Source: a virus. Taken from it: a DNA stretch of 60,249 nucleotides. The notes beneath the pieces are model-generated. The model did not search any database, was not told the DNA's origin, and was given only the letters and a program-made list of their open reading frames with translations. This document shows positions 3,579-51,096 of the stretch, piece after piece. How positions within the stretch are numbered: position 1 is the first letter of the stretch; every line of letters begins with the position of its first letter. The position numbers were made by a program, and so were the translations under genes. Location: the IMG/VR virus record IMGVR_UViG_3300037510_000266, positions 1 through 60,249 of that record, one strand, 5' to 3'.

Positions 3579-4853
3579 ATGGCTGATTCACATACGTTTA
3601 CCAATCAAGACGCTGTCCTGAAAGATGTGTACGACGAGCGCACCATGCTCGAACAGTCGTACCAAGAGGCGCCGTTCTTCGGGATGGTCGAGAAGGAGAT
3701 CGGCGAGGACGCCGGTGGCCGGCGCTATGTCCAAGCGATCGAGTTTGAGAACCCAGGCGGCGCATCGGCGGATTATGCGAAATCGCGACTGAATGCTACG
3801 ACGTCTCAGTACGACGCGTTCATCATCGCGACAACGCAGCAGCACCAGTACATCCAGGTGGAACATCGCCTGATGCTGGCGTCGATGAAAAAGCCGGAGT
3901 CTTTCGTCAAGGCGCTTGATCAGTTCGATCGCGGATTCAAGTCGCTCGGCCAGAAGATCTCGCGTAGGATGTTCAGAACGCTCGGCGGTTCGATCGGCAA
4001 GCTGGCGATCAGTTCGACGACCACGACCACGCTGTCTTTTGCGGATGATGCGTCGATCTTCTACTGCCAGATCGGCATGAAGCTCGCGTTTGCCGCGGCG
4101 GATGGTACCGGATCTCTGCGTGACGGCGGCGATACGGTGACGATCACGAAGATCAATCACTCGAGCCGAACTGTCACCATCAATGCGGATCTGGCGACGA
4201 CGGTCGCAGGTGTTCAGACGACGGATTTCGTGTTCCCGGATGGTGACTTCGGGGCATGTCTGTCTGGTCTCGAGGACTGGCTTCCTGTCGATGATCGCGA
4301 TACTCGTCTTGCGACGTCATTTGCCAGCGTCGATCGTTCCGTGTCCGAGACGCTTCTCGGTGGTGTGTTCTTCGATGGATCCACGACGGGATCGCTCGAT
4401 GAAACGATCATCCTGCTGAATGCCGAGGTGAGTAACTTTAGTGGCATGATCGATACCGCGCTGACCAACCCGCGGCAGATCGCAAACCTCGTTCTCACGA
4501 AGAACAGCAAGGTGCGCATCGAAGCCAGCGTGACAGCAAAGCCCGTCGACAGCGAAGGTAAGGTGCTTACCGTCGGGTTCAAGGGGTTCCGGATCCTCGT
4601 CGGTGATAAGAGCGTCATCCTCATGGGTGATCGCGCATGTCCCGAGACGCGGCTGTACGAGCTCCAGATGAACACGTGGCGCCTGTGGCACACGGGTAAC
4701 CTGATCAACTGGCAGGGTGAGGTGTACGGCGAGCCGCGCATCAAGTCGTCACGTACGAGTGATGATGCCGAGGCGCAGCTCGATGTGTACTGCAACCTCG
4801 GATGCCGAGCGCCGGGCAAGAACGGCGTCGCCAAGCTGCGGGCGGCATCGTAA
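3579..4853 (+). CDS. Major capsid protein (putative)
   Basis: 424 aa, directly after the scaffold-like gene. Size and position are typical of HK97-fold coat proteins. No motif-level proof. Confidence 0.7.
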   Translation: MADSHTFTNQDAVLKDVYDERTMLEQSYQEAPFFGMVEKEIGEDAGGRRYVQAIEFENPGGASADYAKSRLNATTSQYDAFIIATTQQHQYIQVEHRLMLASMKKPESFVKALDQFDRGFKSLGQKISRRMFRTLGGSIGKLAISSTTTTTLSFADDASIFYCQIGMKLAFAAADGTGSLRDGGDTVTITKINHSSRTVTINADLATTVAGVQTTDFVFPDGDFGACLSGLEDWLPVDDRDTRLATSFASVDRSVSETLLGGVFFDGSTTGSLDETIILLNAEVSNFSGMIDTALTNPRQIANLVLTKNSKVRIEASVTAKPVDSEGKVLTVGFKGFRILVGDKSVILMGDRACPETRLYELQMNTWRLWHTGNLINWQGEVYGEPRIKSSRTSDDAEAQLDVYCNLGCRAPGKNGVAKLRAAS

Positions 4854-5231: not shown

Positions 5232-5963
5232 ATGGCTGGACTCAGCGAAACGCAACTCACCCGGCTTGCCGGATTCAATCAAGACGCGCTTGACGGCCTT
5301 CGGGCTCAGCTCGGCGAAGGTGTTGATGCGGTCAGCGCGGCTGGCGCGCTCGATCTGACGAAGTACGTGACCGAGCTGACCGTCAGCGGTACCAAAGCGT
5401 ACACGCTCGCGGCGCCGACGGTCGCCACGCAGCGCAAGCGCATCGTGTGCGTGTCGGCCGCGAGCACTCCGCTCGGGACGGTTACGATCTCGAGCCCGGA
5501 CGACACCACCGGGTTCGTGTGCTCGACCACCTTCACGTTCACCGACGTAGGCCAGTCGATCGATCTGATTGCCACGTCGGGGCTTAAGTGGCGGTGCATA
5601 CGTGTTGATCGCGCGGGCGGCGCCGCGGATGCCGTGGTCATCGGTACCACGGTACTCACGGGGTTGAACCTGTGGAAGCGTTACTGCTGCTCGGTGACCG
5701 GTACAGTCTCATCGACGAGTACCAAGGCACTTCCGAACGGTAGCGCCGTCGGTGAGCGATGCATCGTCACGTGCTCGACGGCTGCATCAACGCCGGTTGG
5801 AAGCATCGATGGCGTGTTCAAGGGCATGATCAACGAGGACTACACGCACCTCGGCGCGATCGGCGTGGTGGCATCTGCGACCGTCGTCGGTGACTGCGCC
5901 GTGCTCGAATGGACCGGTCAGGCGTGGGCGGTCATGTACCAGAATGGTTGCACGCTCTCGTAA
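5232..5963 (+). CDS. Hypothetical virion protein with internal duplication
   Basis: ATG at 5232, 243 aa. Two similar segments (..RIVCVSAASTPLGTV.. and ..RCIVTCSTAASTPVGSI..). The upstream part of track ORF 4968 overlaps the previous gene. Confidence 0.6.
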   Translation: MAGLSETQLTRLAGFNQDALDGLRAQLGEGVDAVSAAGALDLTKYVTELTVSGTKAYTLAAPTVATQRKRIVCVSAASTPLGTVTISSPDDTTGFVCSTTFTFTDVGQSIDLIATSGLKWRCIRVDRAGGAADAVVIGTTVLTGLNLWKRYCCSVTGTVSSTSTKALPNGSAVGERCIVTCSTAASTPVGSIDGVFKGMINEDYTHLGAIGVVASATVVGDCAVLEWTGQAWAVMYQNGCTLS

Positions 5964-7186
5964 TGTCGACGCGATACCTCAGTGATCTCGTGCAGACGGT
6001 CCGCGACCGTGGCGATTACCGCAACCCGGTGAAGTTCACGGACGAGATCATCACGCGCGAGGTACAAGCCGCGTTCGCTGAGCTGTATCAGATCATCACC
6101 GGTGTCAATGAGGGGTATTTCGACACGACGGCGACGCTGACCACGACGGCCAACGTGGCCTACGTGGCATTACCATCAGACAGCTGGCGCGTACGAGCGA
6201 TTGATCGGATCGACAGTTCGGGATGTCCTGTTTTGCTCGATCAGGTTGGTATCGACCAACGCAATCGCTATGGAATCACCGCGTCATGTCCGGTGGCGTA
6301 TCGTCTTACCGCACGTGGCGTGGACCTGTATCCGACACCGGATCAGGCATACACGCTGCGCTTGTTGTACACGCCAAGCGCGCCGGATTTGCGCGCGCCG
6401 GTGTACGTCGGATCGTCCACGGCCACCTTCGTCGGCGTACCGACCACGGGAACCGTGACTACGCCGAGCGGAGTTGCCGCGGGCGATACGATGCTGATTA
6501 TCGTGGCCGGCGCCAGCGTGATTACGGTGCCCGATGGCTGGTACAGCGTGTTGACACTCACGAGCGCCAACGCGGTGCCGTGTACGATCTTGCGGCGCAC
6601 TGCAGATGGCGCCGAGGCCAACACGTACGACGTGATTGTCGGCGGCACATGCGGCATGGCGATGCTCGTGTATCGCAACCTGGACACGATCGCCGATATC
6701 GTCGACTCGTCCATCTCGGACGTGACCACTAGCCGGTCGTTTGCGTGTCCGGCGCTCACGCTCGCCGCGACCACAGATCTGTACGTCGGGATCGTCGCCA
6801 GCACGGACAGCGCCACGACGTTTTCTCCGCCGTTCGCGACGATGGAGCGGATCGACGTCACGCAAGGCACGAAGCGGATTGCGACATTCGATGTGCAGCC
6901 GGGGTCCATTGGTGACACCGGCGCCAAGACAGCACTGGCAGTGACTACGCGCACCGGAATTGCCGCGTCGATCGCCCTGGCGGTGAACCCGTCGCGCGAA
7001 TTTTATAACGGATGGGAGGAGTATATCATATATGGCGCGTGTATCCGTCTGTCCGGCGAAGAGGAATCGACGCGATCGGATTGGGTCACGCTACAGGATC
7101 GCGCGCGCCAGATGGCGGTGAGCGGTGCGACGGGACGGCGATCCGCGGAGCCTCAGCTCATTCCGCTGATGGACGATGGCTGGTAG
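5963..7186 (+). CDS. Head-tail adaptor or tail structural protein (putative)
   Basis: TAATG overlap start at 5963, 407 aa. Position is between the head genes and the tail fibre. Confidence 0.45.
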   Translation: MSTRYLSDLVQTVRDRGDYRNPVKFTDEIITREVQAAFAELYQIITGVNEGYFDTTATLTTTANVAYVALPSDSWRVRAIDRIDSSGCPVLLDQVGIDQRNRYGITASCPVAYRLTARGVDLYPTPDQAYTLRLLYTPSAPDLRAPVYVGSSTATFVGVPTTGTVTTPSGVAAGDTMLIIVAGASVITVPDGWYSVLTLTSANAVPCTILRRTADGAEANTYDVIVGGTCGMAMLVYRNLDTIADIVDSSISDVTTSRSFACPALTLAATTDLYVGIVASTDSATTFSPPFATMERIDVTQGTKRIATFDVQPGSIGDTGAKTALAVTTRTGIAASIALAVNPSREFYNGWEEYIIYGACIRLSGEEESTRSDWVTLQDRARQMAVSGATGRRSAEPQLIPLMDDGW

Positions 7187-8741: not shown

Positions 8742-9626
8742 TCATTGAATTGTTAGTAGCGTAGCAGCCAATACGGACGTCGATGTAGTTCCTGACGCAT
8801 CCACTGATAGAACATATCCGCATCCATATGGAAGTTCCACAAGCGGTGATATGCTGATGATTTGAATGTTACTGCTTTTCGCGGATGGCTGAGATGTCGC
8901 AATAGTGGACAACGATCCATCGATGCATCTCATTATCAGTGATATGAAGTCGCTTGACGTCGTTGTATCTATTACTGATGCTTTAGCGCTTATCAAGATC
9001 TGACCTGGATACATCCTCGTGTCAGCAGCAACATGAAGTGATGGTCCTTCGATCCTAGCATTTGCGTAATCAACGGCGTTGACGGCTGGAAATTCGTTCA
9101 CAAACGATGCGTATGAAATCGGAACTTCAGTAAATACGGTTGTCGCGTTTATCCGGATGCCGAACACATACGACGGATTCGACGTCGGCGAGCTTAGCGC
9201 GATTTCGAACATGCCTTGCGACGTGTCGTAAATGACCGGCGGTGAGATGGTACCCTCGGCTCCACATCCGCAGGTTGTGATACTCGAGATCGTCGTCCAC
9301 GTGGTGCCGCCATCGCTGGATGAGCGTATCGATATCACCACCGGAGCCGATGGTTTGGCGTTTCCTGGACCGTTGTCCATGAGATCCACCGAGATTCCGG
9401 TGATCACGGCTCCCTCTGGACCAGTATACGGGATGTGCCACGTACCGGACGCGAACCACCATCCGGTTTCGTCGATTCCAGTGGTCGCATCGCCATTGCC
9501 GGTTACCGGATTGATGCATTCCGGATCCGAGCATGATAACGCCGTCGATTCGTTTATGCGTTCATGCGTGACACAGCCGCTCGCCATTGCGAGCACACAC
9601 AGCATCCATGTTCTCATGTGACTCAT
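8742..9626 (-). CDS. Lipoprotein (moron, opposite strand inside the tail module)
   Basis: N-terminus MSHMRTWMLCVLAMASGC is a signal peptide plus lipobox-like ASGC. Its stop codon lies 3 nt from the tail-fibre stop on the opposite strand. The 3' half is visibly AT-richer than its neighbours. Confidence 0.6.
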   Translation of the reverse strand: MSHMRTWMLCVLAMASGCVTHERINESTALSCSDPECINPVTGNGDATTGIDETGWWFASGTWHIPYTGPEGAVITGISVDLMDNGPGNAKPSAPVVISIRSSSDGGTTWTTISSITTCGCGAEGTISPPVIYDTSQGMFEIALSSPTSNPSYVFGIRINATTVFTEVPISYASFVNEFPAVNAVDYANARIEGPSLHVAADTRMYPGQILISAKASVIDTTTSSDFISLIMRCIDGSLSTIATSQPSAKSSNIQIISISPLVELPYGCGYVLSVDASGTTSTSVLAATLLTIQ

Positions 9627-13000: not shown

Positions 13001-13165
13001 TGGCGAATGCAGCTATTGGAAAAAGGCGAGTCTATCCAGTTTGTATTCACAGACTTCCAGAAGCCTGGTACATTCGGTCCAAGCTTCGAGTTGACCGAGA
13101 TCCTCATCACCGGCGGCATCAAGGGCGCCGCGCCCAAGCCGGTCACGAAGGGTAGATCGATATGA
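10061..13165 (+). CDS. Large tail (nozzle / tubular-tail-B-like) structural protein
   Basis: 1034-aa ORF with GTG start. Size and position are analogous to podovirus nozzle proteins. Repetitive beta-rich sequence. Positional call only. Confidence 0.45.
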   Translation: MQEVSFRVPFGGGINTKIDEKTVPYTELLRAENVVFDKLTSLKKRNGYTALAPDIDGGGTLTGAVAMASRDSERLVFTRSRCYSRMTGQEKWSDVGAVYSVLGTDRPLSRNGSQQTVPDCATNRGVIVAAWEDTQGGVWWSVSDESGHQIKASTQADASGASPRCVAVGDNLHVYYIVATFLYVVVIDTASPSADATPVLVVDDVNSVYDACPTERTATPSLFAYVSISNNVVVGYIDQSGVLSGPLFNQPSPSTFVAFADFLSTIEAPIAVAYAYVDGGNGDYIAIGCGSQQCITFCTGGSFSNAIATRVDGVTGVGGPVGTIDRVALAIALDSSNVATVWSAWEYDDAEATNHFVDMASTTIAGVSTQSTILSVGIVSRAFVIDDRAFVTLVHDTDFFNTYITYRIDPSSTPVPVARLATGRASGLPARQHVTSVNVIDGVARFCLPERERVISESGSEFRETGIRLFDLDFESTSTYQYSQLGRGLYLGGACPMHYDGRTWTEMGFHVGPELIVATPSAGGSMTSGTTYEYRAWYEWTDAQGEVHRGPTSAGTLVTMGGADTQVTLTLPMLRVTLKDRARICVARSLAAKTGKTAQLFRVTSLDMSTAGSANGIVINDPTTDTATFIDRMSDTTLADQEEIYTDGGILSNDPAPLGHVVARLRNRLLFNDPGNPYLLRYSQDLEDGFGVEIPPDLSFPVDPYGGRITAAASQDDRGIIWQERAIRFFNGDGPTANGDTSSSGFSSPQLVTSDVGCTNPASIVLTPKGYMFQSTKGIYNIGPDGEVSYVGAAVEAYNDQTIKRAVLLPNRTSVLFLTNSGLSLVYDYQRAAWYTWTNHEGLDAIVVDDELYYLRTDGSLVYKETVGEYSDAGLSITILIATAWIHMQEHLQGFQKFLNAYIIGTWLTPHQLGVQYQTDYSPMLGAPVWLDATGDTSSTGWITGTRAQRIGVQPILGSSYGDGAFGDGVFGGTPDDVYQWRMQLLEKGESIQFVFTDFQKPGTFGPSFELTEILITGGIKGAAPKPVTKGRSI

Positions 13166-14742
13166 GTTTTTGGGATACAGCCAAGCGTGTGGGTCTCGGA
13201 GTCGCGACGGGCGGACTCTCCGAGGCCGGCGGAGCGCGTCCGCTGCTTGACGCGGCGAGCGGCCAAGGCGACTACTTCAAGGATCTGCTGTTCGGTGGCA
13301 ACGCGACGAATGGCATCGACGCGCAGCCCAAGCAATACGACGCCGCAACGGCGATGCTTGGCCAGATATCCGGCACTGCGCAGCAACGTCAGGCGCCGAC
13401 GATCGGTGCGATGCAGCTCGCCGGTGGGCCGCAGGATCAGAGCCGGCAAGGCATGATGGACGTCGCGAATCGCCTCGGCGGCATCGCCAACGGTACACAG
13501 GCCGGCGCAGGCGAGCTCGCCGTCAACCGTCAGTTGTCGTCGATCAATGCGGCGCAGAACTCCGCGGCGCGGATGGCGCGCGGCGCGAACTCGGCGCTCG
13601 CGTATCGCAATGCCATGCGCAACCAAGCCGACGCTGGGCTCGCCGGTGCTGGTCAGGCGGCGCAAGCGCAGATGTCCGATCAGCAAGCGGCGAATCAGCA
13701 ACTTGGGTCGATCTACGGCATGATGCGCGGCCAGGATATTGGATACGCATCGGAAAATGCGCAACTCGGACAGCAAGCGAACCTTGCGAACCAGAATGCG
13801 CAACTCACGCAGCAGCAAATGAACGATGCGCGACAGATCCAGGCGATCGGTCAACAGCTCGGGTGGGATCAGGCGCGTATTCAGGCTGAGCTACAGAAGG
13901 CCGGCATTGCGATGCAGGATAAGGGCATCCTTCCGGGGCTGCTCCAAGGCGCCGGGCAAGCCGCGGCGGCATACGCCACCGGTGGACTATCGACTGCGGC
14001 AGGCGCGGCTGGCGGCGGTGCCAGCAACTACAACCAAGCTGGCCAGCTGATGAACACGGGCGGCCTAATGACGCTCTCCGACGAACGCGCCAAGACGAAC
14101 ATCAATGATGGCTCATCGACGGCAAGTGCGGCGCTTGGCGCATTGCGCCCGATTACGTTCGCGTATGTCGATCCGCGGAATGGCGCTGGTCGGCAACTCG
14201 GATTGAGCGCACAAGATCTAGAGCGCAATCCTGGCCTTGCGCATGCCGTGGTGAACACACCGCAGGGCAAGAAAGTGGACGGCGGGAAGCTTGCGACGGG
14301 AATCGCGGCGATTTTGCCGACAATCGATGAACGTATCCGACGCATCGAGTCGGCTACGCCGATGACGGAGATGGCCCGTCGCGATGAGCTGCTGCGCTTC
14401 GCTGGCGACGATCGCCCGCTACCTCCGCCGCTTTCGACGACGATCGTCGATGCCGATCGTGCGCGATACGAGGCGCTGGCACGCGCGGAGATGGCCCGTC
14501 GTGATGAACTGCTGCGCTTCGCAGGCTATGGGCGACCGCCGGAGCCGCCACCTCCGCCGCTTCCGACGACGATCGTCGATGCCGATCGTGCGCGATACGA
14601 GGCGTTATTGCGTCGTCGTCCAATTCCGCTGCTTCCGCCGGGATGGGTTCCGACACATGCGGCTCCGATCCCGATGCGCGCGATGTACTCCACGCCGAGT
14701 GGGCCGGGTGCGTCGGAACTCGCCGATATGGGTGGACAATAG
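13162..14742 (+). CDS. Virion protein with Gln/Asn/Ala-rich N-half and S74-type intramolecular chaperone domain
   Basis: ATGA overlap start. Motif LSDERAKTNI...FAYVD...GLSAQDLERNPGLAHAVV...IDERIRRIES matches the auto-processing chaperone of tail fibres and spikes. Confidence 0.65.
   Translation: MSFWDTAKRVGLGVATGGLSEAGGARPLLDAASGQGDYFKDLLFGGNATNGIDAQPKQYDAATAMLGQISGTAQQRQAPTIGAMQLAGGPQDQSRQGMMDVANRLGGIANGTQAGAGELAVNRQLSSINAAQNSAARMARGANSALAYRNAMRNQADAGLAGAGQAAQAQMSDQQAANQQLGSIYGMMRGQDIGYASENAQLGQQANLANQNAQLTQQQMNDARQIQAIGQQLGWDQARIQAELQKAGIAMQDKGILPGLLQGAGQAAAAYATGGLSTAAGAAGGGASNYNQAGQLMNTGGLMTLSDERAKTNINDGSSTASAALGALRPITFAYVDPRNGAGRQLGLSAQDLERNPGLAHAVVNTPQGKKVDGGKLATGIAAILPTIDERIRRIESATPMTEMARRDELLRFAGDDRPLPPPLSTTIVDADRARYEALARAEMARRDELLRFAGYGRPPEPPPPPLPTTIVDADRARYEALLRRRPIPLLPPGWVPTHAAPIPMRAMYSTPSGPGASELADMGGQ
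14077..14355 (+). other. Peptidase S74-like intramolecular chaperone domain (within the 13162-14742 CDS)
   Basis: Ser306 in SDERAKTNI is the expected autocleavage serine. Downstream G..AQ(D/E)L and V...V blocks are present. Confidence 0.6.
14368..14604 (+). repeat. Tandem coding repeat, period 120 bp (2 units)
   Basis: gagatggcccgtcg(c/t)gatga(g/a)ctgctgcgcttcgc... occurs at 14368 and 14488. Both units end in gtcgatgccgatcgtgcgcgatacgaggcg. They encode EMARRDELLRFAG..P-rich..TTIVDADRARYEAL twice. Confidence 0.9.
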
Positions 14743-17151
14743 ATGCCGGACATGATGACGCCAGATGGGCGCGTCGTGTCCGTGCCCGATGGTTTCGAGG
14801 GTCACTTCGCCGGGTTGTCGTTGCCTCCGGCACCCGAGGCGCAGCCTCCGTCGGTTACGCAGCCAGGCCTCGGCGTGCCCGCAGCAGCCCTGGACGTTGT
14901 ACCGAGTCAACGCCCACCGGAGCTGTCGGTCGTGCCACAGCTGTCGCCAGACGCGCCCGTGATGTCGCCAGATGGTGGCGGACAGACGTTGGCGCAGGCG
15001 TTTCCGCACGGCGACGCGGCGCTGCCGCAGCCTGCGCCGCAGGTCACACAACGCGACATCGCGACGATGGGCGAAGCCGGGCCGCTCAACGCCGAGATCG
15101 GCGCGCTTGATAAGGCGAAAGAGGCTGCGCAACGCCTTGGTACGGCGCAAGCGAATCAGGCGATCGCGGTGGGTGCTGTCGAAGCAGCGGCGAATGACGA
15201 AGCTGATCGCCAACTCGCACAGATCAAAGCTAATGCCGAGGCCAACGCCAAGGCGGTGCAAGACGCCACGGATGCGTATGTGCGTAATGCACAATCACTG
15301 GCGAATGTGCGTGTGGATCGTAGCATCGATCATCCGATTCTTGCTGCAGTCGGAACCGCGCTAAACATTCTGGGAACGGCCATGAAGAAGGCCGACATGT
15401 CCCAGGTGATGAAGCCGGTGTACGACGCGATCGATCGCAAGGTTTCGGCGCAGATGCAGGATATTGAGCTTGGCCGCGCCAATCTCGGATTGCAGCGCGA
15501 ATCGCTGGCGTTGTTGCGTCAGTCTGGCAACGATAAGATGACGTTGCAACAGACGTTGATGCTGTCCAGTCTCGAGCAAGCGAAACGACGCGTGCAGGAG
15601 ATCAAAGACAAGTCGACGTCGCCGATCGTGAAGGCGCAAGCCGATCAGGCGATGGCGGATATCGATGCGCGCCAAGCTGGCGCTATCGGGACGTATCAGG
15701 CTCGGTATCAGCAACGTCAGGATGCCGCCGCGGCGCGCGCACAGGCGGAGCGACTCGCCAAGATGCAGATTTCCGTGACGATGCGCGGACAAGATATACA
15801 GGCCGCGGAAAACGACGCCAATCGTCGTGAACGCGCGCAGGAGCATATCGATAACATCGCTGAGAAGCTCATGCTTGCCGGTAACGCCAAGGCAGCGGAA
15901 CGTGCGAAGATGCTAAAGGATAATGGCATCCTCGATCCGGTGACGCACGAATACATGTTGACGTCAGCCGGACAGGCGAAGATGGCGCAAGCTGACAGCA
16001 TGGAGGCGCAAGTCCGCAAGGATCCGACGCCGGTTGCGAAGGCGTACATCGCAAAGATTACAGACAAGACGCAAGCCGATCAGCTCACCGAGGCCATCAA
16101 GAATCCGAAGATCGCGGCGCAGGTGGCGCAGCAATACGCAAACGATATTCGCAACGATGCTCAGATCAATGATACTGCTATTGTGCGCGGTGCTGTGAAA
16201 CCGGATAAGATTCAGGAGGAGCTCGCCACAGCGCATGAAGTTCAGCTTTCGCTTGATACGGCGCAGAAGATGCTTGAACAGGATCCTTCGTCATTTGATC
16301 GAAAAGCATGGGCAGCGCTTCAGGCGCAACTAATGGTAACCAATGCCAACTACGTCAAGACGCTTGGCGAGCGCGTCAGCGTGAAAGCGCTCGAGGCGTT
16401 CAATGGCGTTATGTCGATTGATCCGGAGAGTTTAACTTCGCGCACCATTGATAAGGGCAAAGGGCTTGAAGCCATAAAGGCGCTGAAGACGGCAAATGCG
16501 CAGCAAGCTGATGTTACTCTCGGCAAGGCTGGCATCAAGACGTCATGGAAGCCAGGATCGCAGGGAACTGACACAACCGACATTTTCGCCGGCAAGACGG
16601 CGCAAGAACTTGCACGTGATGCGGAGCCTGGCGCATGGAAAGGAGATATCAGAGCATTGGCAGCAAAGGCTGCTGGCTTGTCATCGACGTCAAGGCAAGA
16701 TGAAGCGTTGAATGCTGCGATGAACCGTCGCGGTGCTCCAAGCGATGCCGAGATCAAGCAAGCTCGCAAGGAAGACCGCGATCCGATCGGCGACGTATCG
16801 AATTATGGACTAGATCCAAAGGTTGATGATAATGTGCGCTCGCTGATCAAGCAGTCATCAACTGTCGGACACGACAAATACTCTGAGATCGTGAGCACTC
16901 TGGCGCGTCCACTTACGACGACAAATCGTCCGGGTCTTGATACAGGCGTTGCGAAACTTATTCGCGATACGGATCCAAGGCTCTACGAAGACGTCATCGC
17001 CAAGGTTGCGACGGATGCCGGACAGTCGCGCGCCGAAGATCTCGTGATGGCCATCAGCATTCCCGCTGTCAAGTCGATCGACTTATCGCCGACGCCATCA
17101 CACAAGCGCGTCGTCGTCCCAGGCGCCGTGCAGCCGGAACCGGTGCGGTAG
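14743..17151 (+). CDS. Internal virion / ejection protein (putative)
   Basis: 802 aa, Ala/Gln/Lys-rich with long helical-looking stretches. Middle gene of three consecutive large genes after the nozzle-like gene. Confidence 0.5.
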   Translation: MPDMMTPDGRVVSVPDGFEGHFAGLSLPPAPEAQPPSVTQPGLGVPAAALDVVPSQRPPELSVVPQLSPDAPVMSPDGGGQTLAQAFPHGDAALPQPAPQVTQRDIATMGEAGPLNAEIGALDKAKEAAQRLGTAQANQAIAVGAVEAAANDEADRQLAQIKANAEANAKAVQDATDAYVRNAQSLANVRVDRSIDHPILAAVGTALNILGTAMKKADMSQVMKPVYDAIDRKVSAQMQDIELGRANLGLQRESLALLRQSGNDKMTLQQTLMLSSLEQAKRRVQEIKDKSTSPIVKAQADQAMADIDARQAGAIGTYQARYQQRQDAAAARAQAERLAKMQISVTMRGQDIQAAENDANRRERAQEHIDNIAEKLMLAGNAKAAERAKMLKDNGILDPVTHEYMLTSAGQAKMAQADSMEAQVRKDPTPVAKAYIAKITDKTQADQLTEAIKNPKIAAQVAQQYANDIRNDAQINDTAIVRGAVKPDKIQEELATAHEVQLSLDTAQKMLEQDPSSFDRKAWAALQAQLMVTNANYVKTLGERVSVKALEAFNGVMSIDPESLTSRTIDKGKGLEAIKALKTANAQQADVTLGKAGIKTSWKPGSQGTDTTDIFAGKTAQELARDAEPGAWKGDIRALAAKAAGLSSTSRQDEALNAAMNRRGAPSDAEIKQARKEDRDPIGDVSNYGLDPKVDDNVRSLIKQSSTVGHDKYSEIVSTLARPLTTTNRPGLDTGVAKLIRDTDPRLYEDVIAKVATDAGQSRAEDLVMAISIPAVKSIDLSPTPSHKRVVVPGAVQPEPVR

Positions 17152-20100
17152 GTGGGACTCTATCGTTCACCCACCGGCGCGATCGAGTCGATCGACGACG
17201 ACAAGGCGAGCTCGGCGCTCGCCAGTGGCTATGTGCCAGTCACGTCGGCGCAGTCTGGCGCGCCGGTTGAATCTGACGCCACCGGCGGCATTCTCGGGAC
17301 GCTGAATGCCGGTGCGACCTCGGTGCTGTCTGGCGCGACCCTCGGGCTGTCGGACGTCGCTTTACGTGGCATCCTCAATCGAGGCGACATGCGGCGCCTG
17401 GCCGCAGATCGCGAGGCCAATCCGATTGTATCCGGTGCCGGCCAGGTCGCCGGGGCCATTCTGCCTTCGCTGGTGGCGCCGGGATCGATCCTCGGACAAG
17501 CACCGGCCGGGGTGCTTTCGCGCGCTACGGCGCCGCTGGTAGAGCGTGGCGGGCTGTCGGCGCTTGCCGCAGGCGGCATCGAGGGCGCGGCGCAGAACGC
17601 CGGTGCGTATCTGTCCGATGTTGCGCTCGGAAACCGCGACCTATCCGCCGAGGGGATCGCTGGTGCCGTTGGTGGTGGATTCGCGTTTGGCGTCGGAGGC
17701 GGCGTCGTGGCGATGGGTATCGAGAAGGGCACGATGGCCGCGCGGCGCATGTTCGCACGCGTCGCGGATGGTGGCGAACGCGCGGCGAACGAAGCCGAGC
17801 AGGCGTGGATGACGCAGTATCAGGCGACGATCGAGGCACACGACGCGGCGGTTAACGCCGCAAAAGCGCAACTTGCCGCGGCACGCGCCGCACGCGAAGA
17901 TGCCGCGTTGGCGCGCAATCGGGCCGCGGCAACGACGGCCGAGACACGTATCAATGCACCACAGATCGACGCCGAGCGCGCATCGGCGCAGGCGTTCGAT
18001 GAGCTTGCTGCGAAGGAAGCGGCCATCAAGGCGGCCGAGCTGCCGCCGGTGAAGGTCGGTAACATCGACGATCTCGAGCGGCTCATATTCGGACAGCAAG
18101 AGGCAAAGTCAGAGCTTGATGATCTAATGCGTCAGGTTGAGTCACCAGCGGTTGAGACTGCTCCGGTTGGAGAGGTTCATGAGCCTGAAACAGTTAAATC
18201 AAATATTCCAGATTACTCAACCATCAAAGATTACGAGAAGAAGTTTGATGACTATCTAGAACAAACCATTCCTGCTCGATCAATCGCAGAACGAGGATAT
18301 TACGAACCTCCGGGACGTGAAGGTATCGATAGCGTTCGCATGAGGAATGCCAGGAAAGCAATATCCGAAGGACAGCGCGATGCAATTAAGCTTGGTGTTT
18401 CTGAAGATGGCAAAGTCGTGCTGTCCGATGGTCGCCATAGGTTGCAGGCTGCAATAGAATCTGATTCTCCTGTAAAGGTAAAATGGTTCAGCTCGAGTTC
18501 TCCTGCATCGCATGACGTATTGCGAACTGGTGAAATCGTAAAGCCAGCGATGGGCTCCGCATCCTACGATGCATATAAGTCATCGTTCGTTAAAGGTTTA
18601 TCTAAAGAAGAGATTGATGCAGCAAAGGCGTATAGCGGTGGATCTCATGCATCTATTAATCGAGCAATTGAAAATCAAGCTGAGATGTCAGCGAAAAATG
18701 CTGAAAACACTCGCTTGCTAGATTCTTTGATATCTCGTTCGTCTCTTCCAGAAGACATGACTGTTTTTCGTGGCATCCAAAGCGATGAGATATTTGACAA
18801 ATATTCAAAATTGAATCCTGGTGATGTTTTCTCTCACGGACGCTTTACGTCAACCACTGCATCAGATGAATTGCCTAGGGAATTTTACGGAAATGTGGAA
18901 ATGCGAATCAAGCTCCATAAGGGAGATCATGCCGCTCCTATTCCAGCATTAAAGTCACAGGAACGAGAATTACTTCTTCCGCGTGATCAAAAATTTAAAT
19001 TGACGTCATTACAGAACTTTGGAGGTAAGCGTCTAATCGTTAACGTTGAAGCTGTTAATGAATCAAGCAATCTTGAGTATTTATTGCGTGGAACCAGCGA
19101 GCGCGTTGCATCAGGCGAGTCACTAAAATCGATCGGCGCTCCTTCGGCTGCTGAATATGCAGCCAACAAGTCGACAAAATCAGAAGCCGCGTCGCGAGCA
19201 TTCCGCGAGCGTGCTGCGTTCAAAGAACGCGCTGGCATCGGATCGGCGCGACGTAGCTACAAGGTCAAGCAACTCGAGATCGCGCATGATGCGGCGATCG
19301 ACCGCGCTGCCACGGCGATTGATCCGGCAGAGCGTGCAACGGCGACATATGAAGCCAACGCGATCGAGCAACAGCTCGCCATCGCTGGACGTGCGTCATC
19401 GGCGCCGGACGACATCGCGCGGCTTGCGCCAGCGATCGAGAAGTACGAGCGCAAGTCAGCAGAGTTGACAGAAGGACTCGGCGAAGCGGCACCACAGACG
19501 GCGCGCGAGCACGCCGCGGCGTTTCGTGCTGCCGAGGACGAGGCCGATCGCAAGGTGACCGATCGCGCCACGCGTGCCGTGGATGACAGCGTGCATCCGC
19601 CGACCGGCAAGGGCACGATTATAAATCCGCAGGACTTCGAGCGCGTCTTCGGCAAGCCGATGCCGCTGCCGCCGACGTCCGCGGAAGCGCTCGCCTCCGC
19701 GAAGCAAGATCAGCTCGCGTCATCGGCTGCATACAAGCGCGCCAAGGCGACAGAGACCGAGGCGAAAATCAACGCGCGTAGGGCCACAGATGCGCGTAAG
19801 GCCATCCCTGAGCGACCCAAGGCAATCCCGCCGGTGCCACGCGAAGCATCGACGCTCGGATCGATCGCGACGGCGATTGGCGTGGCCGGCGAGCTCGGAA
19901 TCCCGGGTATCCCGAAGCCGGAAGACATCCCCGTGATCGGACCGCTCCTCGGTGCGTACATCAAGTACCGCGCAATCAAAGCGACGGCGGGACGGTTCGT
20001 CGGTCGCGTCGCGGCCACGGGCGATACGCGTGCGGCGGCGCTGGCGGCGCGTACGAAGGACAAGATCGTCACCGCTGTTGATCGGACGCTAGGCCTCGCC

Positions 20101-20784
20101 GAGAAGGCGGCACCCAAGGCACGCGCTGGCATCGTCGCTTCCAGTGCCGTCATCGGCAAGCGTATCTTTGATGACGGCGAACCCGATGCCCCGAAGGGCG
20201 CTACTCGACAAGAGCAAGCTGCGGTGCGTATCCGCGAGATCCTGGCTGCGAATCAACGCCCGGAGCTGATCACGGCGATGGTGCGCCACGAGATGCGCAA
20301 TGTTGTCGATCCGGATCTCGTGGCCGCGGCCGAGAAACATCTGATCGCACGATTCGCACATCTCGCATCCGTGGTGCCTAAGCCTCCGCCGGACAACGCG
20401 TATGCGCAGCGTCCATGGGTTCCGTCGATGGCAGCAACGCATGAACTCGAGCAGCGCTTGGCGGTGATTCACGATCCGTCGCATGCGCTGTCGGGTCCTG
20501 TGAGTCCAGCTGCGGCGGATACGTTTCGTGAGGCACATCCGCAGCTGTATCAGCTGGCGAAGGATCGCCTCATCGATCGCGTGAGCGACCTCAAGGAACC
20601 GATGCCACGTGAGGATCGACTTCGCGCCTCGGCGTTGTTCCAGATTCCTATCGACATTTCGCTCGATCCGTCGCATATCGCGATTGTGCGTGCGCCGATC
20701 AAGCCGGACGTGGCGCCGAGCATGGCCAACGTTCCAGATCTGAGTTCAATGTACAACCCGCAGAATACCAGGATCAAGTTATGA
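17152..20784 (+). CDS. Giant internal virion / ejection protein carrying ParB-like and ADP-ribosyltransferase domains
   Basis: 1210 aa, GTG start directly after the upstream TAG. Gly/Ala-rich hydrophobic N-terminus and Ala-rich helical regions. An embedded low-GC cassette is listed separately as domain features. Confidence 0.6.
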   Translation: MGLYRSPTGAIESIDDDKASSALASGYVPVTSAQSGAPVESDATGGILGTLNAGATSVLSGATLGLSDVALRGILNRGDMRRLAADREANPIVSGAGQVAGAILPSLVAPGSILGQAPAGVLSRATAPLVERGGLSALAAGGIEGAAQNAGAYLSDVALGNRDLSAEGIAGAVGGGFAFGVGGGVVAMGIEKGTMAARRMFARVADGGERAANEAEQAWMTQYQATIEAHDAAVNAAKAQLAAARAAREDAALARNRAAATTAETRINAPQIDAERASAQAFDELAAKEAAIKAAELPPVKVGNIDDLERLIFGQQEAKSELDDLMRQVESPAVETAPVGEVHEPETVKSNIPDYSTIKDYEKKFDDYLEQTIPARSIAERGYYEPPGREGIDSVRMRNARKAISEGQRDAIKLGVSEDGKVVLSDGRHRLQAAIESDSPVKVKWFSSSSPASHDVLRTGEIVKPAMGSASYDAYKSSFVKGLSKEEIDAAKAYSGGSHASINRAIENQAEMSAKNAENTRLLDSLISRSSLPEDMTVFRGIQSDEIFDKYSKLNPGDVFSHGRFTSTTASDELPREFYGNVEMRIKLHKGDHAAPIPALKSQERELLLPRDQKFKLTSLQNFGGKRLIVNVEAVNESSNLEYLLRGTSERVASGESLKSIGAPSAAEYAANKSTKSEAASRAFRERAAFKERAGIGSARRSYKVKQLEIAHDAAIDRAATAIDPAERATATYEANAIEQQLAIAGRASSAPDDIARLAPAIEKYERKSAELTEGLGEAAPQTAREHAAAFRAAEDEADRKVTDRATRAVDDSVHPPTGKGTIINPQDFERVFGKPMPLPPTSAEALASAKQDQLASSAAYKRAKATETEAKINARRATDARKAIPERPKAIPPVPREASTLGSIATAIGVAGELGIPGIPKPEDIPVIGPLLGAYIKYRAIKATAGRFVGRVAATGDTRAAALAARTKDKIVTAVDRTLGLAEKAAPKARAGIVASSAVIGKRIFDDGEPDAPKGATRQEQAAVRIREILAANQRPELITAMVRHEMRNVVDPDLVAAAEKHLIARFAHLASVVPKPPPDNAYAQRPWVPSMAATHELEQRLAVIHDPSHALSGPVSPAAADTFREAHPQLYQLAKDRLIDRVSDLKEPMPREDRLRASALFQIPIDISLDPSHIAIVRAPIKPDVAPSMANVPDLSSMYNPQNTRIKL
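18271..18489 (+). other. ParB/Srx-like domain inside the ejection protein
   Basis: ..IDSVRMRNARKAISEGQRDAIKLGVSEDGKVVLSDGRHRLQAAIESDSPVKVKWF. The DGRHR motif is at 18427-18441 (aa 426-430). Confidence 0.55.
18556..19062 (+). other. R-S-ExE ADP-ribosyltransferase domain (Alt/C3/VIP2-like) inside the ejection protein
   Basis: YSGGSHASINRAI (aa 494-). TVFRG with Arg540 at 18769-18771. FTSTT with the S-T-T at 18850-18858. QERELLLP with Glu604-x-Glu606 at 18961-18969. Confidence 0.7.
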
Positions 20785-21245
20785 GCATCTCAGGATACGG
20801 ACATCTGCTTACTCCGCTTACCTCGGCCGGCGTCGAAGTCACTGCGGAGAAGCGCAATGGCATATTCACGCTAACGGCAGGCTCGACGTATTATTACGTC
20901 TGGGGCGGCGCATCGGCTCCTACGCAGCATGTTCAGTTGACGGGGTACACAGCCGGACTCGTCATTACTTCGGCGACGATTCAGACGTGCAGTCAGCCGA
21001 AGTCGGCCGTAAGTGACGCAAGCGCTACCGTCGGAGAATGGATCAACGAAGATCCGACCGATGGCGATGCACGCGTCGATGGCACCGGATGGACGTCTTC
21101 TGCGGCGGTGGCAGCGGCTAACGGATCCGGTCTTGGCGGCGCATCGTGGCACTTGCAGCAATGGGGCGTATCTCGTACTCGCCTCGCGGTGGTTGTAGGT
21201 GGCACTGGTGGTGATGTCGCCGTGGCGTGGAGTAGCAAAGAATGA
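20781..21245 (+). CDS. Hypothetical virion protein
   Basis: 154 aa, ATGA overlap with the upstream gene. Confidence 0.55.
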   Translation: MSISGYGHLLTPLTSAGVEVTAEKRNGIFTLTAGSTYYYVWGGASAPTQHVQLTGYTAGLVITSATIQTCSQPKSAVSDASATVGEWINEDPTDGDARVDGTGWTSSAAVAAANGSGLGGASWHLQQWGVSRTRLAVVVGGTGGDVAVAWSSKE

Positions 21246-22807
21246 TTAAGCCATCCATAGGATCATCAATAGGGGCGCGTATCGGTCATCAGGAGTCGCC
21301 CGATCCGTTGGTTGTGATGATCGGCGACTCTCTGGTCTACGGAACCGCCGACGCTAACAACATTGGGGCCGCGCAGTGGTTCGACGTCGATTCGGCATTC
21401 GCTCCGGTGACATTCGCATCGGACCAGGCCGCGAACACCAACGACCCGCCGCCATTCGGAGCCGAAATCGGACCTGAATCTCTCGTTGCCTACAACCCTG
21501 GGCTATCGCCTGGGTTCGGTTTCGAGATAACGCTGATGAAGACACTCTATGCGCTGTCGCCGAAGTACGCCTATCTCGTCAAATGCGGCATCATCAGCGC
21601 GCTCCTCGACGCGCACTGGTTGCCGACGGCGAACTACCCGACGACGTCACCGAACCTGTATGCGTCACAGATCGCGCGCATCAAGGCGTACGAGACTTCT
21701 ACGGGGCGGCGCACGGCCATCGTCATCGTCGTGCTAGGTACGAATGACGGAAGCTCAAGCGGAGCCGCGGGCCGCATGGCGGCGAACATGGCAGCGATGG
21801 TCACGCAGTTACACAGCGACTTCCCGGACGCGGTCATTGTGTGGCCGCTCGTGAACATCAACACGGTGCAGACCCCGGACAACATCCCGACGGTTCGCAC
21901 GCAGATGCTGACCTACGCGGCGACGGCACCTGCGTACTTCATGATGCCTAACATCGATCATTTCCAGCTCGCGGCTGGCGACCCGTTTCATTGGGACACG
22001 CCATACGTGCTCGCAGCAGGCCACACGTTCGCATATGCGGCATATGACCTTGCCGGAAGGACACGACCATCGGTAACCACGACGCCTGCCGTCGTCGGAA
22101 TCGGCGTGCCGCTCAAGGCGGACGGTGCGTCGGCGACGCTTACCCCGTTGCCCGAAGCAGGAACGCTAGATGGTGACACGACGCTGGCGTTCTGCATGAC
22201 GCAATCCGTGACGCCCGGCGGCGGAGCGGGAACTCAGACCATCAGCTGCTCTGCAGGATGGACGATCGTGGCAGGAGCAAGTGGTCAATCATCGGCGACT
22301 GGGTTCACTACCACTTGGGCCGTCTACAAGCGCAAGGTTCCGACTGGCGAGGTCGAAACCGACAGCTTGTCGCCGAGCAAAGATCGTCGCGCAGCCGCGC
22401 CTACGTTCACGATCGCAAATGGTGGCGACAGTGTCGCGCAGGTGATCACGGTGCGCGGACCGACCTCAGGAGCGCAGGACGTTGATGCTTCGCAGCTCGC
22501 CTCGCTCAACGCCTTCAGCACTGGTCCACACACCGTGCCCGCGTTCTCGACGACATCGGACCATGACCTCGTGCTCTACTTCGTCGGCGGCGGCGGATCG
22601 CCGGGCAATGCCTCAACGCTTACCGCGTTAGGTGTTACCGGGTTAACGAAGATCGGAGAGGCAAACTTCGCGTTCACAAGCGGCGACAACGTTGTCCTCG
22701 GCCTCTATGCCAGCTCGAAGGCATTGGCTGGCTCGGTCGGCACGGCCTCGCTATCGTTCACCAATGCAACTCTGGTATTCGCCAGCGCAATTGCACTCAA
22801 ACCGTAA
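21242..22807 (+). CDS. Tail protein with N-terminal SGNH/GDSL esterase domain
   Basis: Block I VMIGDSLVYG, block III VLGTNDG, block V DPFHW (DxxH). About 270-aa Ser/Thr/Gly/Ala-rich C-terminal part. Confidence 0.65.
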   Translation: MIKPSIGSSIGARIGHQESPDPLVVMIGDSLVYGTADANNIGAAQWFDVDSAFAPVTFASDQAANTNDPPPFGAEIGPESLVAYNPGLSPGFGFEITLMKTLYALSPKYAYLVKCGIISALLDAHWLPTANYPTTSPNLYASQIARIKAYETSTGRRTAIVIVVLGTNDGSSSGAAGRMAANMAAMVTQLHSDFPDAVIVWPLVNINTVQTPDNIPTVRTQMLTYAATAPAYFMMPNIDHFQLAAGDPFHWDTPYVLAAGHTFAYAAYDLAGRTRPSVTTTPAVVGIGVPLKADGASATLTPLPEAGTLDGDTTLAFCMTQSVTPGGGAGTQTISCSAGWTIVAGASGQSSATGFTTTWAVYKRKVPTGEVETDSLSPSKDRRAAAPTFTIANGGDSVAQVITVRGPTSGAQDVDASQLASLNAFSTGPHTVPAFSTTSDHDLVLYFVGGGGSPGNASTLTALGVTGLTKIGEANFAFTSGDNVVLGLYASSKALAGSVGTASLSFTNATLVFASAIALKP

Positions 22808-35751: not shown

Positions 35752-35948
35752 CATTCGTGGAGGCAATCAAAACGGGAAGGCCGATGCGAAGGAAATCAGC
35801 ATCTATTGTTCCTGAGTGGATCGTGCTCGGATACGATGGATCTAACGATGTGGTTGGCATTCCGAGATGGCGCGAGACCAGAAGCGGAAAGCTGATTGGT
35901 CTACGATTTAGCGACTACACAGCCGAAGACTGGGAGGTGCTTGCGTGA
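35748..35948 (+). CDS. DUF2829 (Tad2-like) small protein
   Basis: 66 aa. N-terminus MTFVEAIKTGRPMRRK and C-terminus DYTAEDWEVLA resemble the F.EA.K.G..(V/M)RR..W ... EDWE(I/V) ends of DUF2829 as I remember them. Confidence 0.45.
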   Translation: MTFVEAIKTGRPMRRKSASIVPEWIVLGYDGSNDVVGIPRWRETRSGKLIGLRFSDYTAEDWEVLA

Positions 35949-37027
35949 TCACCGTCAACCGACCGGAGCTTCTCCGCGCGCTCAAGATCGCTACCGGCGT
36001 AGTCGGCAATGGCAAGACGATCCCGATGCTGGCGAACGTCCTGCTGCGATCGGAAGGCGCCGGACGTCTGTCGATATCTGCAACGGATCTTCGCGTGTCG
36101 CTCAGCGCAGATCTGCCGTGTAGTTTCGGTGACTCGTTCGGTGCAGCGTTCGACGCTCGCAAGATCCACGAGCTCATTGCCAACGCCAGCGCCGACGATA
36201 TCAGCATCACGATCGAGTCTAACCACTGGGCGACGATCAAGAGCGGCAAGGTGACATTCAAGATCGCTGGGTTGCCGGACAAGCACTTCCCGGAGATCCC
36301 CGACCGGCGCGGACACGAGTTCGTAACCGTCGAAAATGCCATGCTGCGCGAGATGATCGATCGCACAGCGTTCGCCGCGTCCGACGACGAATCGCGGCCT
36401 AACCTGTCCGGTGTGCACGTCAGCAGCGACGGATCACGCATCACGATGACGGCTACTGACGGATACCGCGTGTGTCGTCTGTCGCGGTCCACGTCGATAC
36501 CGACGGTGTCCGCGATCGTGCCGTGCATGGACCGCGTGCGCAGCATCATCAGCTCGGCTCCAACGAGTCGCGTTGCGCTGACCAAAGAGCATCTATTCGT
36601 GGTCCAGGACGACACGGCCATCGCGATCCGACTCATCGAGGCGGTGTATCCGCCAATGGAGCCAATCTACGGCATGGAGCGCAAGCACCTGGTAACAATC
36701 GGACGAGAGGCGATCTTAATCGCCATGAAGCGCGCCGGGGTGATGACCACTGAGCAGACAGGCGCCAAGATGGCGCTCTCGCGCGGCATGATGCGGCTCA
36801 GCGTCGTGAATCCAGACCTCGGCGAGGTACACGAGGATCTCGATGCAGATTACCAAGGCGAGCCGATCGCCATCGGATTCAACCCTGACTATGTCGTCGA
36901 GGTTTTATCGGCGATGTCCAGCGATCAGATTGTCATTGAAATCGCAGATCCACTCAACCCGGCGCTCGTGCGCCAAGTCGGAAACGACGACTACGCAGGA
37001 ATCATCCTGCCAATGAGGGTATTATGA
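35945..37027 (+). CDS. dnaN: DNA polymerase III beta sliding clamp
   Basis: 360 aa. N-terminus ..LLRALKIATGVVGNGKTIPMLANVLLRSEGAGRLSISATDLRVS is typical of DnaN. Length fits three clamp domains. Confidence 0.75.
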   Translation: MITVNRPELLRALKIATGVVGNGKTIPMLANVLLRSEGAGRLSISATDLRVSLSADLPCSFGDSFGAAFDARKIHELIANASADDISITIESNHWATIKSGKVTFKIAGLPDKHFPEIPDRRGHEFVTVENAMLREMIDRTAFAASDDESRPNLSGVHVSSDGSRITMTATDGYRVCRLSRSTSIPTVSAIVPCMDRVRSIISSAPTSRVALTKEHLFVVQDDTAIAIRLIEAVYPPMEPIYGMERKHLVTIGREAILIAMKRAGVMTTEQTGAKMALSRGMMRLSVVNPDLGEVHEDLDADYQGEPIAIGFNPDYVVEVLSAMSSDQIVIEIADPLNPALVRQVGNDDYAGIILPMRVL

Positions 37028-41797: not shown

Positions 41798-42001
41798 TCA
41801 CGTCTCCTCGAACGCAGATGACACTGTACGAATACAATTGCATTTCGCACAATGAGTTTTGCAACCAAGAATGAAACGACCAGGAATCTCAGAATCAATT
41901 ACCACATGCCCACAGCTAAGGCGCCATGGCATGTCATACTGCTCTTGTTCGCGTTCATCAGAATTAGCTGCCAGTAAAATTTCTTCTACTGTAGGAATCA
42001 T
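41798..42001 (-). CDS. Hypothetical Cys-rich protein (AT-rich island)
   Basis: The ATG at 42001 overlaps the ParB stop (ATGA). 67 aa. C..H...C..C pattern. Confidence 0.5.
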   Translation of the reverse strand: MIPTVEEILLAANSDEREQEQYDMPWRLSCGHVVIDSEIPGRFILGCKTHCAKCNCIRTVSSAFEET

Positions 42002-42933: not shown

Positions 42934-43010
42934 TGGTGCCTCTGGCTGGAGTCGAACCAGCAACCTATCGCTTATAAAGCGATTGCTCTAACCAAATGAG
43001 CTACAGAGGC
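42934..43010 (-). tRNA. tRNA-Ile (anticodon UAU), CCA encoded
   Basis: The reverse complement folds canonically: GCCTCTG-TA-GCTC/ATTTGGTTA/GAGC-A-ATCGC/TTTATAA/GCGAT-AGGTT-GCTGG/TTCGACT/CCAGC-CAGAGGC-A-CCA. Confidence 0.9.
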
Positions 43011-46260: not shown

Positions 46261-46290
46261 GGTCATCTCCTGTTTTATATTTTTCGTCGG

Positions 46291-46363
46291 TGCCACCGGC
46301 AGGAATCGAACCTGCGCCCCGCGGCTTAGAAGGCCGGTGCCCTATCCACTGGGCGACGGTGGC
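46291..46363 (-). tRNA. tRNA-Arg (anticodon UCU)
   Basis: The reverse complement folds as GCCACCG-TC-GCCC/AGTGGATA/GGGC-A-CCGGC/CTTCTAA/GCCGC-GGGGC-GCAGG/TTCGATT/CCTGC-CGGTGGC-A. There is one 27:43 mismatch and no encoded CCA. Confidence 0.85.
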
Positions 46364-51089: not shown

Positions 51090-51096
51090 AGTTGTC

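Follow-up and report, generated by a model that had tools for sequence, protein, structure and literature searches.

The stretch of DNA analysed here (hereafter, the window) is the 60,249-nucleotide (nt) IMG/VR record IMGVR_UViG_3300037510_000266, a complete, terminally redundant phage genome, and the subject of the analysis is a large protein of 1210 amino acids (aa) that is encoded within its structural module by an uninterrupted open reading frame (ORF) with a GTG start codon (17152..20784, plus strand). This protein is a member of a large metagenomic family in which a conserved scaffold encloses a polymorphic centre, and is not a one-off fusion. In the window, the centre contains a ParB/sulfiredoxin (Srx)-like domain followed by an ADP-ribosyltransferase (ART) domain of the R-S-ExE type; across the family, these domains are independently assorting modules that occur in either order and at variable spacing, not a fixed pair. 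The explanation that best covers these observations, and which we hold with moderate confidence, combines a scaffold family with interchangeable effector modules, injection of the ART and the ParB-like domain into the host, and replacement of the central block in this genome.

Both ends of the protein are conserved. The N-terminal module (aa 1-300, 17152..18051), which is matched in at least 46 family representatives, is rich in Gly and Ala and contains moderately hydrophobic segments at aa 53-75, 91-121 and 164-190, followed by an Ala-rich stretch; its GC content at third codon positions (GC3) is 0.73. The middle and C-terminal module (aa ~690-1210, 19219..20781), defined by alignments to relatives with 35-72% identity, includes the motifs IPVIGPLL..Y.KYRA and FDDGxPDAPK and is predicted to be all-alpha, with an entirely helical AlphaFold model (predicted local distance difference test score, pLDDT, of 69). 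Between these modules lies a block of low GC3 (aa ~310-665, 18079..19146) that encompasses a linker, the ParB/Srx-fold domain (aa 365-462, 18244..18537), the ART (aa 479-630, 18586..19041) and the first third of a conserved linker motif (aa 641-687, 19072..19212; family consensus DLEALLRGTKARLDAGESLKDIGAPARAEYAAAKA...) that marks the 3' edge of the variable region; all these segments are on the plus strand.

The extent of the family became apparent from searches with different parts of the protein; its members belong to uncultivated phages of ~46-61 kb that encode an adaptor of the SU10 type. An exhaustive HMMER search with aa 345-467 yielded 96 clusters of proteins with the ParB-like domain at 50% identity, among which 65 share the backbone and 46 have both terminal modules, with lengths from 781 to 1916 aa (median 1272). 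An ART is also present in 14 of the 96 clusters, either before or after the ParB-like domain, and either domain is sometimes found in two copies. The relatives found with the C-terminal half of the protein align over the N- and C-terminal parts and possess the ParB-like domain without an ART. A scan of IMG/VR that was based on the backbone, and hence is unbiased with respect to the content of the centre, identified nine loci on contigs of ~19-61 kb (most of them 46-61 kb), all with identical gene order. According to domain calls complemented by an iterated ART search, which added the divergent ART of L010, the centre in these loci consists of an ART only (L004, L005), the ParB-like domain only (L006/L012, L007, L009), both (L010) or neither (L008, L011). 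An earlier reading of the window from its letters alone (the sequence-only reading) had treated the ParB-like domain and the ART as a paired unit; because relatives carry one, both or neither, in either order, this pairing does not hold, and the polymorphism of the cassette that the same reading had named beforehand as a check was indeed found. A Pfam scan of six long ART-less relatives for other cargo recognised only one further ART.

With an iterated hidden Markov model (HMM), the linker motif of ~47 residues is detected in 52 family proteins, most of which have one copy and a few two or three (P0029, P0024, L007, L008 and P0019); the repeated copies may reflect duplication of cargo-plus-linker units. 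The idea that a copy of the motif borders each cargo module, where it might serve in recombination or proteolysis, was set aside given that most proteins have a single copy and that the stretch on the N-terminal side of the cargo in the window is not detected by the HMM; the motif is retained only as a boundary marker of the variable region.

The ART matches the Pfam profile PF03496 (ADPrib_exo_Tox) over aa 479-630 with E = 6.4e-17 (62 bits, compared to a cut-off of 23.4), well beyond what chance would produce, and PHROG ART families match the same region. The motifs are located at the residues given in the sequence-only reading: DGRHR at aa 426-430 in the ParB-like domain and, in the ART, YSGGSHASINRAI at aa 494-506, FRG at 539-541 (R540, nt 18769-18771), STT at 567-569 (nt 18850-18858) and QERE at 603-606 (E604-x-E606, nt 18961-18969). 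The best sequence matches among Protein Data Bank (PDB) entries are Lmo0066 (8za7_B, E = 1.5e-7), ExoT (7e-3), C3stau and Vis, and F-R540-G, S567-T-T and E604-R-E606 align, in this order, with the catalytic Arg, STS and (Q/E)xE motifs of Lmo0066, ExoT and C3stau, in agreement with the complete R-S-ExE signature proposed originally. Thus, among solved structures, the mono-ARTs of the C3-like, ExoS-ExoT, Vis and Lmo0066 type, with their Arg, STS/STT and (Q/E)xE motifs, are the closest; these are either toxins secreted by bacteria or proteins that stand alone, whereas the ART in the window forms part of a phage structural protein, and overall identity to them is low.

Altogether, 19 copies of the ART were found within the family. 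In an alignment of 14 of these, including that of the window, sequences that are only 20-33% (about 28%) identical to the ART of the window share an invariant R540, G541, E604 and E606, with S567 conserved in at least 90% of them; ahead of the catalytic Arg, the helix motif Y-S..IN..L has been retained as well. Conservation of the R, S and ExE residues across such highly diverged sequences indicates selection for catalysis, and the domain is accordingly predicted to be active; by analogy with ExoT and Vis, the ExE form suggests arginine specificity without proving it. Word-indexed homology searches returned two matches for the cassette and one for the ART alignment, and no close homologue of the ART. 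The gene located directly downstream, p154 (154 aa, 20781..21245, plus strand), was considered as a candidate ART immunity gene and ruled out, because it is kept in ART-less relatives (tblastn, 35-61% identity in 12 of the 12 loci L001-L012, ART-plus and ART-minus alike); the ORFs scanned included no neighbouring gene for immunity or for an ADP-ribosylhydrolase.

The ParB-like domain is recognisable primarily by its predicted fold. The AlphaFold2 model of aa 365-462, built from a 42-sequence alignment, has a pLDDT of 88.9, and in a Foldseek search of the PDB about 46 of the top 48 matches are of the ParB/Srx type, mostly with a probability of 0.9-1.0 and TM-scores of 0.55-0.61, at E-values of only ~0.02; the matches include Srx, ParB, Noc, KorB, SbnI, PadC, Atu1540 and a serine kinase. 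Among viral models (BFVD), Foldseek finds matches annotated as ParB/Sulfiredoxin with E-values down to 1e-4. In the model, D-G427-R-H-R430 (nt 18427-18441) spans the end of strand 58-62 and the start of helix 64-72, and at least 90% of the 42 aligned sequences have G427, R430 and A433, with A434 present in all of them. We take DGRHR at this strand-helix junction to correspond to G-C-H-R (GGCHR) of Srx and to GERRxRA of ParB, at the position of box II. Sequence profiles are the point that weighs against the assignment: the domain has no match in Pfam or NCBIfam, including PF02195. In addition, a profile of the domain retrieved only spurious NHL-repeat matches, and no ParB, among PDB sequences; PF02195 was reached by one of 31 relatives (E = 6e-4); and an alignment of phrog_595 across aa 354-633 of the protein was of no use for naming the domain. 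Thus, the ParB/Srx-like domain that the sequence-only reading had placed around DGRHR is supported at the level of the modelled fold, not by a sequence profile. Probably, it is a nucleotide-binding domain. It is a bare ParB/Srx core that lacks a helix-turn-helix (HTH), not a partition ParB, and Pfam detects neither HTH_ParB nor any other DNA-binding domain within the 1210-aa protein. Elsewhere in the genome, a 297-aa protein (41998-42894, minus strand) does contain a ParB HTH domain (PF17762, HTH_ParB, E = 6e-10); this protein binds DNA in the manner of the conventional ParB/KorB type and has no relationship to the bare core of the 1210-aa protein.

The same ParB-like domain connects the family to other phage proteins. 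Of 10 short proteins with this domain, 9 belong to the MuF head proteins, one of the set additionally containing the InPase domain typical of polyvalent proteins; the domain in the window is 39-45% identical to the C-terminal domains of MuF proteins. In P0056, a metagenomic MuF protein of 570 aa, InPase (PF18823), MuF (PF04233) and the same ParB-like domain are joined in one chain, which ties this ParB-like subfamily directly to the published domain network of polyvalent proteins. A tblastn search with the domain against 50,697 phage records gave only a marginal match, to Lactobacillus phage A2, and none to phage P1, which this set should include.

The central block stands out compositionally, as the sequence-only reading had noted for a segment of about 1 kb. 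In 300-nt intervals, the GC content falls from 0.65-0.71 to 0.40-0.48 between ~18050 and ~19250, and in 30-codon intervals GC3 falls from ~0.75 to 0.13-0.47 over aa ~310-665 (nt ~18079-19146); the kilobase with the lowest GC content in the entire 60-kb sequence is 18101-19100 (0.433 compared to a mean of 0.591 with a standard deviation of 0.037, that is, ~4.3 standard deviations below the mean). Because third codon positions drop in addition to the change in amino acid composition, the fall in GC content is not merely a consequence of protein composition, and in this genome the block is indeed foreign by both GC3 and GC relative to its flanks. The further step of the original proposal, de novo fusion of foreign cargo to the carrier, is not sustained by comparison with relatives. 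GC3 is 0.30-0.35 in the central block compared to ~0.7 in the flanks, whereas relatives hold the same domains at the GC3 of the backbone: in L013/P0017, where the ParB-like domain precedes the ART as in the window, GC3 values of the two domains are 0.82/0.83 compared to 0.79 for the backbone, in L017/P0009 they are 0.91/0.92 compared to ~0.9, and in ART-less backbone relatives GC3 is as high in the ParB-like domain as elsewhere in the gene. Given that the ParB-like domain is a common resident of the family at normal GC content, and that ParB-ART combinations exist at backbone GC content, the event is better read as replacement of the central block.

Most likely, recombination with a family member of lower GC content replaced the central block (aa ~310-665). 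The GC3 break together with two comparisons favours this reading. Between the window and its closest relative, L004 (56% GC), the N- and C-terminal modules are ~74% and ~70% identical, respectively, whereas in the central block identity collapses from ~70% to ~30% or the sequences become unalignable, recovering exactly at the linker motif; the ART of L004 is ~30% identical to that of the window, and L004 has no ParB-like domain. Furthermore, the ParB-like domain of the window is closest to those of P0010-P0013 (61-63% identity), the backbones of which are only 41-46% identical, whereas for the closest backbones (P0016, P0003 and L004; 51-74%) the ParB-like domain is 48-51% identical or missing. 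Several points weigh against a transfer of this kind. The donor of the low-GC block was not found by word-indexed searches, the closest ARTs being only ~25-33% identical, and L004 has a low-GC3 ART island at the same slot even though its ART is so divergent. Strong low-GC3 islands are present only in the window genome and L004, with milder dips over the ARTs of L010 and L014. Given the independent low-GC ART in the corresponding position of L004, low GC may be a recurrent or maintained property of the cassettes in this sub-lineage and not the mark of one recent transfer. In its full form, this alternative holds that there was no transfer at all, the ParB-ART centre having been inherited vertically while low GC was kept either by a local mutational bias or by selection on the effector domains, acting for instance on the kinetics of translation or against motifs targeted by host restriction or defence. 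The L004 island and the milder dips in L010 and L014 are compatible with it, as is the lack of flanking DNA repeats or mobile-element genes that would mark an insertion (at the block boundaries, a search for DNA repeats detected only short, chance-level matches). Vertical inheritance is hard to reconcile, however, with ARTs that are ~30% identical on backbones that are 70-74% identical, with the lack of the ParB-like domain in L004, with the backbone-level GC3 of the ParB-ART combinations in P0017 and P0009, and with the disparity between the nearest relatives of the ParB-like domain and those of the backbone; we consider this alternative unlikely.

If recombination with a lower-GC family member brought in the central block and displaced the earlier content, the resulting protein would be deployed as follows. 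The 1210-aa protein would be made late and packaged in the virion, and its exit through the tail would coincide with or precede that of the DNA, so that the ART would encounter host NAD+ and its presumed targets, host proteins, before any phage gene is expressed, in a manner likened to T4 Alt and to the predicted action of polyvalent proteins; the ParB/Srx module would act separately, on a nucleotide or DNA. Packaging and ejection appear fairly likely to us. In a conserved late structural module, the 1210-aa gene comes after those for the adaptor and the fibre, and the same ParB-like domain is found on MuF proteins; proteins of the MuF/SPP1 gp7 type are packaged into the head and exit it together with the DNA. 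The Gly-rich, moderately hydrophobic segments of the N-terminal module point in the same direction. In phage SU10, the ejection proteins gp20-24 bear the next gene numbers after the nozzle (gp17) and the needle (gp18) (PMC9509320). Identification as an ejection protein thus depends on gene position and analogy, and the sequence-only reading went too far in calling the carrier gp16-like, given that the carrier resembles none of the known ejection proteins in sequence, profile or fold. Indeed, the following results count against ejection: searches of the backbone against PHROGs, Pfam, PDB sequences and PDB folds matched no known ejection, internal-virion or pilot protein; PDB sequence searches with the N-terminal part and with a profile of the C-terminal part returned nothing; a Foldseek search of the C-terminal model (pLDDT 69) against the PDB gave no meaningful match; the hydrophobic segments of the N-terminal module are only moderately hydrophobic; and gene position and the MuF association are indirect indications of presence in the virion. 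PDB sequence searches with the neighbouring proteins p393, p1034 and p802 returned nothing either.

The same observations leave some room for an external role, in which the 1210-aa protein would be a structural component of the tail or of a baseplate-like structure, or a tape-measure-like assembly factor; the ART and ParB-like domain would then not be injected but would work extracellularly or once the cell has lysed, as a toxin or fitness factor set free in the way proposed for the MuF-fused ART Bxa. The lack of homology to known ejection proteins is compatible with such a role, and so is the neighbourhood, in that a fibre with an S74 chaperone domain and a SASA/GDSL esterase are typical external tail proteins; furthermore, Bxa shows that ARTs encoded in phage structural modules can act on non-host cells (PMC11699363). 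An ART of the R-S-E type, in contrast, requires NAD+, which is cytoplasmic; the ParB-like domain is shared with MuF, which resides inside the head; conserved modules enclose the cargo on both sides, away from any exposed terminus; and no lysogeny-linked rationale for a fitness factor is evident because no relative was found in 185,579 species genomes. On balance, we regard an external role as improbable. Less probable still is that the ART, and perhaps the ParB-like domain too, is a dead domain exapted as a structural spacer in a long rod-like protein. In one family member, P0030, the R, S and ExE residues are gone, and the centres of many relatives lack a recognisable enzymatic domain, as might be expected of a spacer; the invariance of R540, G541, E604 and E606 and the at least 90% conservation of S567 in 14 highly diverged ARTs, along with retention of the Y-S..IN..L helix motif, speak against decay. 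Packaging in the virion and ejection of a cargo predicted to be catalytically competent remain the reading we prefer.

The architecture described here has counterparts among known phage systems. In the polyvalent proteins described by Iyer, Burroughs, Anand, de Souza and Aravind in 2017, ARTs and DdrB-like ParB domains are hubs of the domain network (PMC5512222). Like these, the 1210-aa protein is a large multidomain protein encoded among late or virion genes, with an ART and a domain of the ParB/Srx superfamily and with predicted delivery along with the DNA; having at least two effector-type domains in one phage polypeptide that is encoded within a portal-capsid-adaptor-fibre module, it fits the definition of a polyvalent protein by architecture and context. 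The differences are that its ART is of the R-S-ExE type, whereas the 2017 survey reported R-S-E ARTs to be absent from genuine polyvalent proteins (PMC5512222), that its cargo is internal, between two conserved modules, and that these N- and C-terminal modules match no Pfam or PHROG family. Moreover, an extra helix is described for the DdrB-like ParB, whereas the model of the domain in the window appears to run from helix 64-72 directly to strand 76-83.

Packaging of ARTs in virions has been established for T4 Alt and is widely predicted for ARTs fused to MuF, portal proteins and virion RNA polymerases (vRNAPs) (PMC5512222, PMC9503650). T4 Alt is likewise an ART of the R-S-E clade that is encoded with structural genes and is presumed to act early on host proteins; it is, however, a dedicated ~76-kDa myovirus protein with a capsid-targeting sequence that is processed by the prohead protease, whereas the ART of the window is embedded within a 1210-aa scaffold and its genome is podovirus-like. 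The match of the Alt-like phrog_802 to the ART of the window is weak (E = 4e-4 to 7e-3), and similarity to Alt is marginal. The N4-like vRNAP, the termini of which serve encapsidation and injection, is also a large podoviral protein with a central enzyme flanked by terminal regions; this is an analogy only, since the 1210-aa protein has no RNA polymerase domain and no sequence relationship to vRNAP. An N4-like vRNAP fused to an ART exists in Roseovarius Plymouth podovirus 1 (cited in PMC5512222). MuF polymorphic toxins and ARTs (Jamet 2017, PMC5576092; PMC11699363; Iyer 2022, PMC9503650) share with the present family the combination of a conserved virion scaffold and variable effectors, including ARTs of the PF03496 type, some of which, such as Bxa, are toxic arginine ADP-ribosyltransferases (PMC11699363). 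They differ in that the 1210-aa protein has no MuF domain (PF04233) according to Pfam, and in that MuF toxins are C-terminal and accompanied by an adjacent immunity gene, whereas the cargo in the window is internal and the downstream gene is kept irrespective of the cargo. In a search of open-access papers, no podoviral ejection protein or internal virion protein was found to be described as containing an ART. The novelty suggested by the sequence-only reading therefore has to be divided: effectors of the ART and ParB types packaged in virions as parts of large phage proteins are already published (PMC5512222, PMC9503650), whereas no description of the carrier family was found.

The genome itself measures about 60,122 bp (~60.1 kb) and is circularly closed or terminally redundant, nt 1-127 recurring exactly at 60123-60249. 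The portal (28-1938) and the major capsid protein (3579-4853) were identified by PHROG matches. A gene for an SU10-type head-to-tail adaptor (5909..7186, plus strand; PF24175, E = 2.4e-11) places the locus of the 1210-aa ORF in a podovirus-like structural module. Two genes upstream of this ORF is a fibre or spike with an S74 intramolecular chaperone domain (13162..14742, plus strand; PF13884, E = 7e-8), and two genes downstream is a 521-aa SASA/GDSL esterase (21242-22807, plus strand), probably a receptor-modifying tail enzyme, which is replaced by other proteins in several relatives. The order of structural genes is portal, capsid, adaptor (5909), p393, p1034, S74 fibre (13162), p802, p1210, p154 and esterase, and the succession p393-p1034-p526-p802-p1210-p154 is kept in all related loci. 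The protein encoded immediately upstream of the 1210-aa ORF, p802 (14743-17151, plus strand), has no match in Pfam, PHROG or the PDB. It may be a second variable protein, because it diverges faster among relatives than its neighbours (27-37% identity) and because its C-terminal third shows a milder drop in GC3, to 0.40-0.55 compared to ~0.75, especially at ~16100-17000. A putative gene for a 294-aa protein (8742-9626), without a Pfam or PHROG match, is on the minus strand within the otherwise plus-strand structural module.

Replication genes, namely, two helicases, a methylase, a beta clamp and a D5-type primase, follow the structural module; the phage-encoded beta sliding clamp of DNA polymerase III (35945-37027, plus strand) retains all three Pfam clamp domains. 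Three tRNAs are encoded: Ile-TAT (42934-43010, minus strand), Arg-TCT (46289-46363, minus strand) and His-GTG (52679-52750, plus strand), the first two of which read A/T-ending codons that are rare in a genome with 59% GC. The kilobase with the second-lowest GC content (51001-52000, 0.489) is near the His tRNA. In one related contig of 28 kb (L001), a PF04447 dATP/dGTP pyrophosphohydrolase, a domain associated with phages that modify DNA bases, is encoded at 22508-22763 on the minus strand. Neither megablast and tblastn searches with the 1210-aa ORF nor a tblastn search with the capsid protein produced a match among the 50,697 phage records of INPHARED, and a scan with the backbone of the 1210-aa ORF across 185,579 species genomes (one per species) gave 332 pattern matches, of which none was confirmed, and no prophage context; hence, the genome represents an uncultivated lineage in which nothing points to lysogeny.

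Delivery of ART and ParB-type effectors by virions is a known strategy, and the carrier family described here, which is not unique to this genome, is undescribed; its definition as a sizeable, polymorphic and uncharacterised family is the most valuable outcome of this analysis. Beyond this, we offer a broader proposal, tentatively and at less than even confidence: the family might be an unrecognised effector-delivery scaffold of widespread uncultivated podoviruses, in which the terminal modules would package and eject the protein while the centre would be hot-swappable, with cargo exchanged between phages of hosts that differ in GC content. If so, the exchangeable cargo would comprise R-S-ExE ARTs, ParB/Srx domains and several domains of no known family; the scaffold would be a phage counterpart of the Rhs, contact-dependent inhibition (CDI) and MuF polymorphic toxins, with internal instead of C-terminal cassettes, as well as an exception to the reported lack of R-S-E ARTs in polyvalent proteins, the domain repertoire of which would be widened accordingly. 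The practical limit is that both the phage and its host are uncultivated. The family is nevertheless defined by sequence, through the 65 of 96 ParB-like clusters that share the backbone and the nine IMG/VR loci, and in this form lends itself to the study of cargo tolerance, of host targets in the first seconds of infection and of the unannotated central domains. If the 1210-aa protein is indeed ejected, short-tailed phages outside the T4, N4 and MuF paradigms would pre-load an ADP-ribosylating enzyme and a nucleotide-binding ParB/Srx module, and would shuffle these modules within a conserved carrier.

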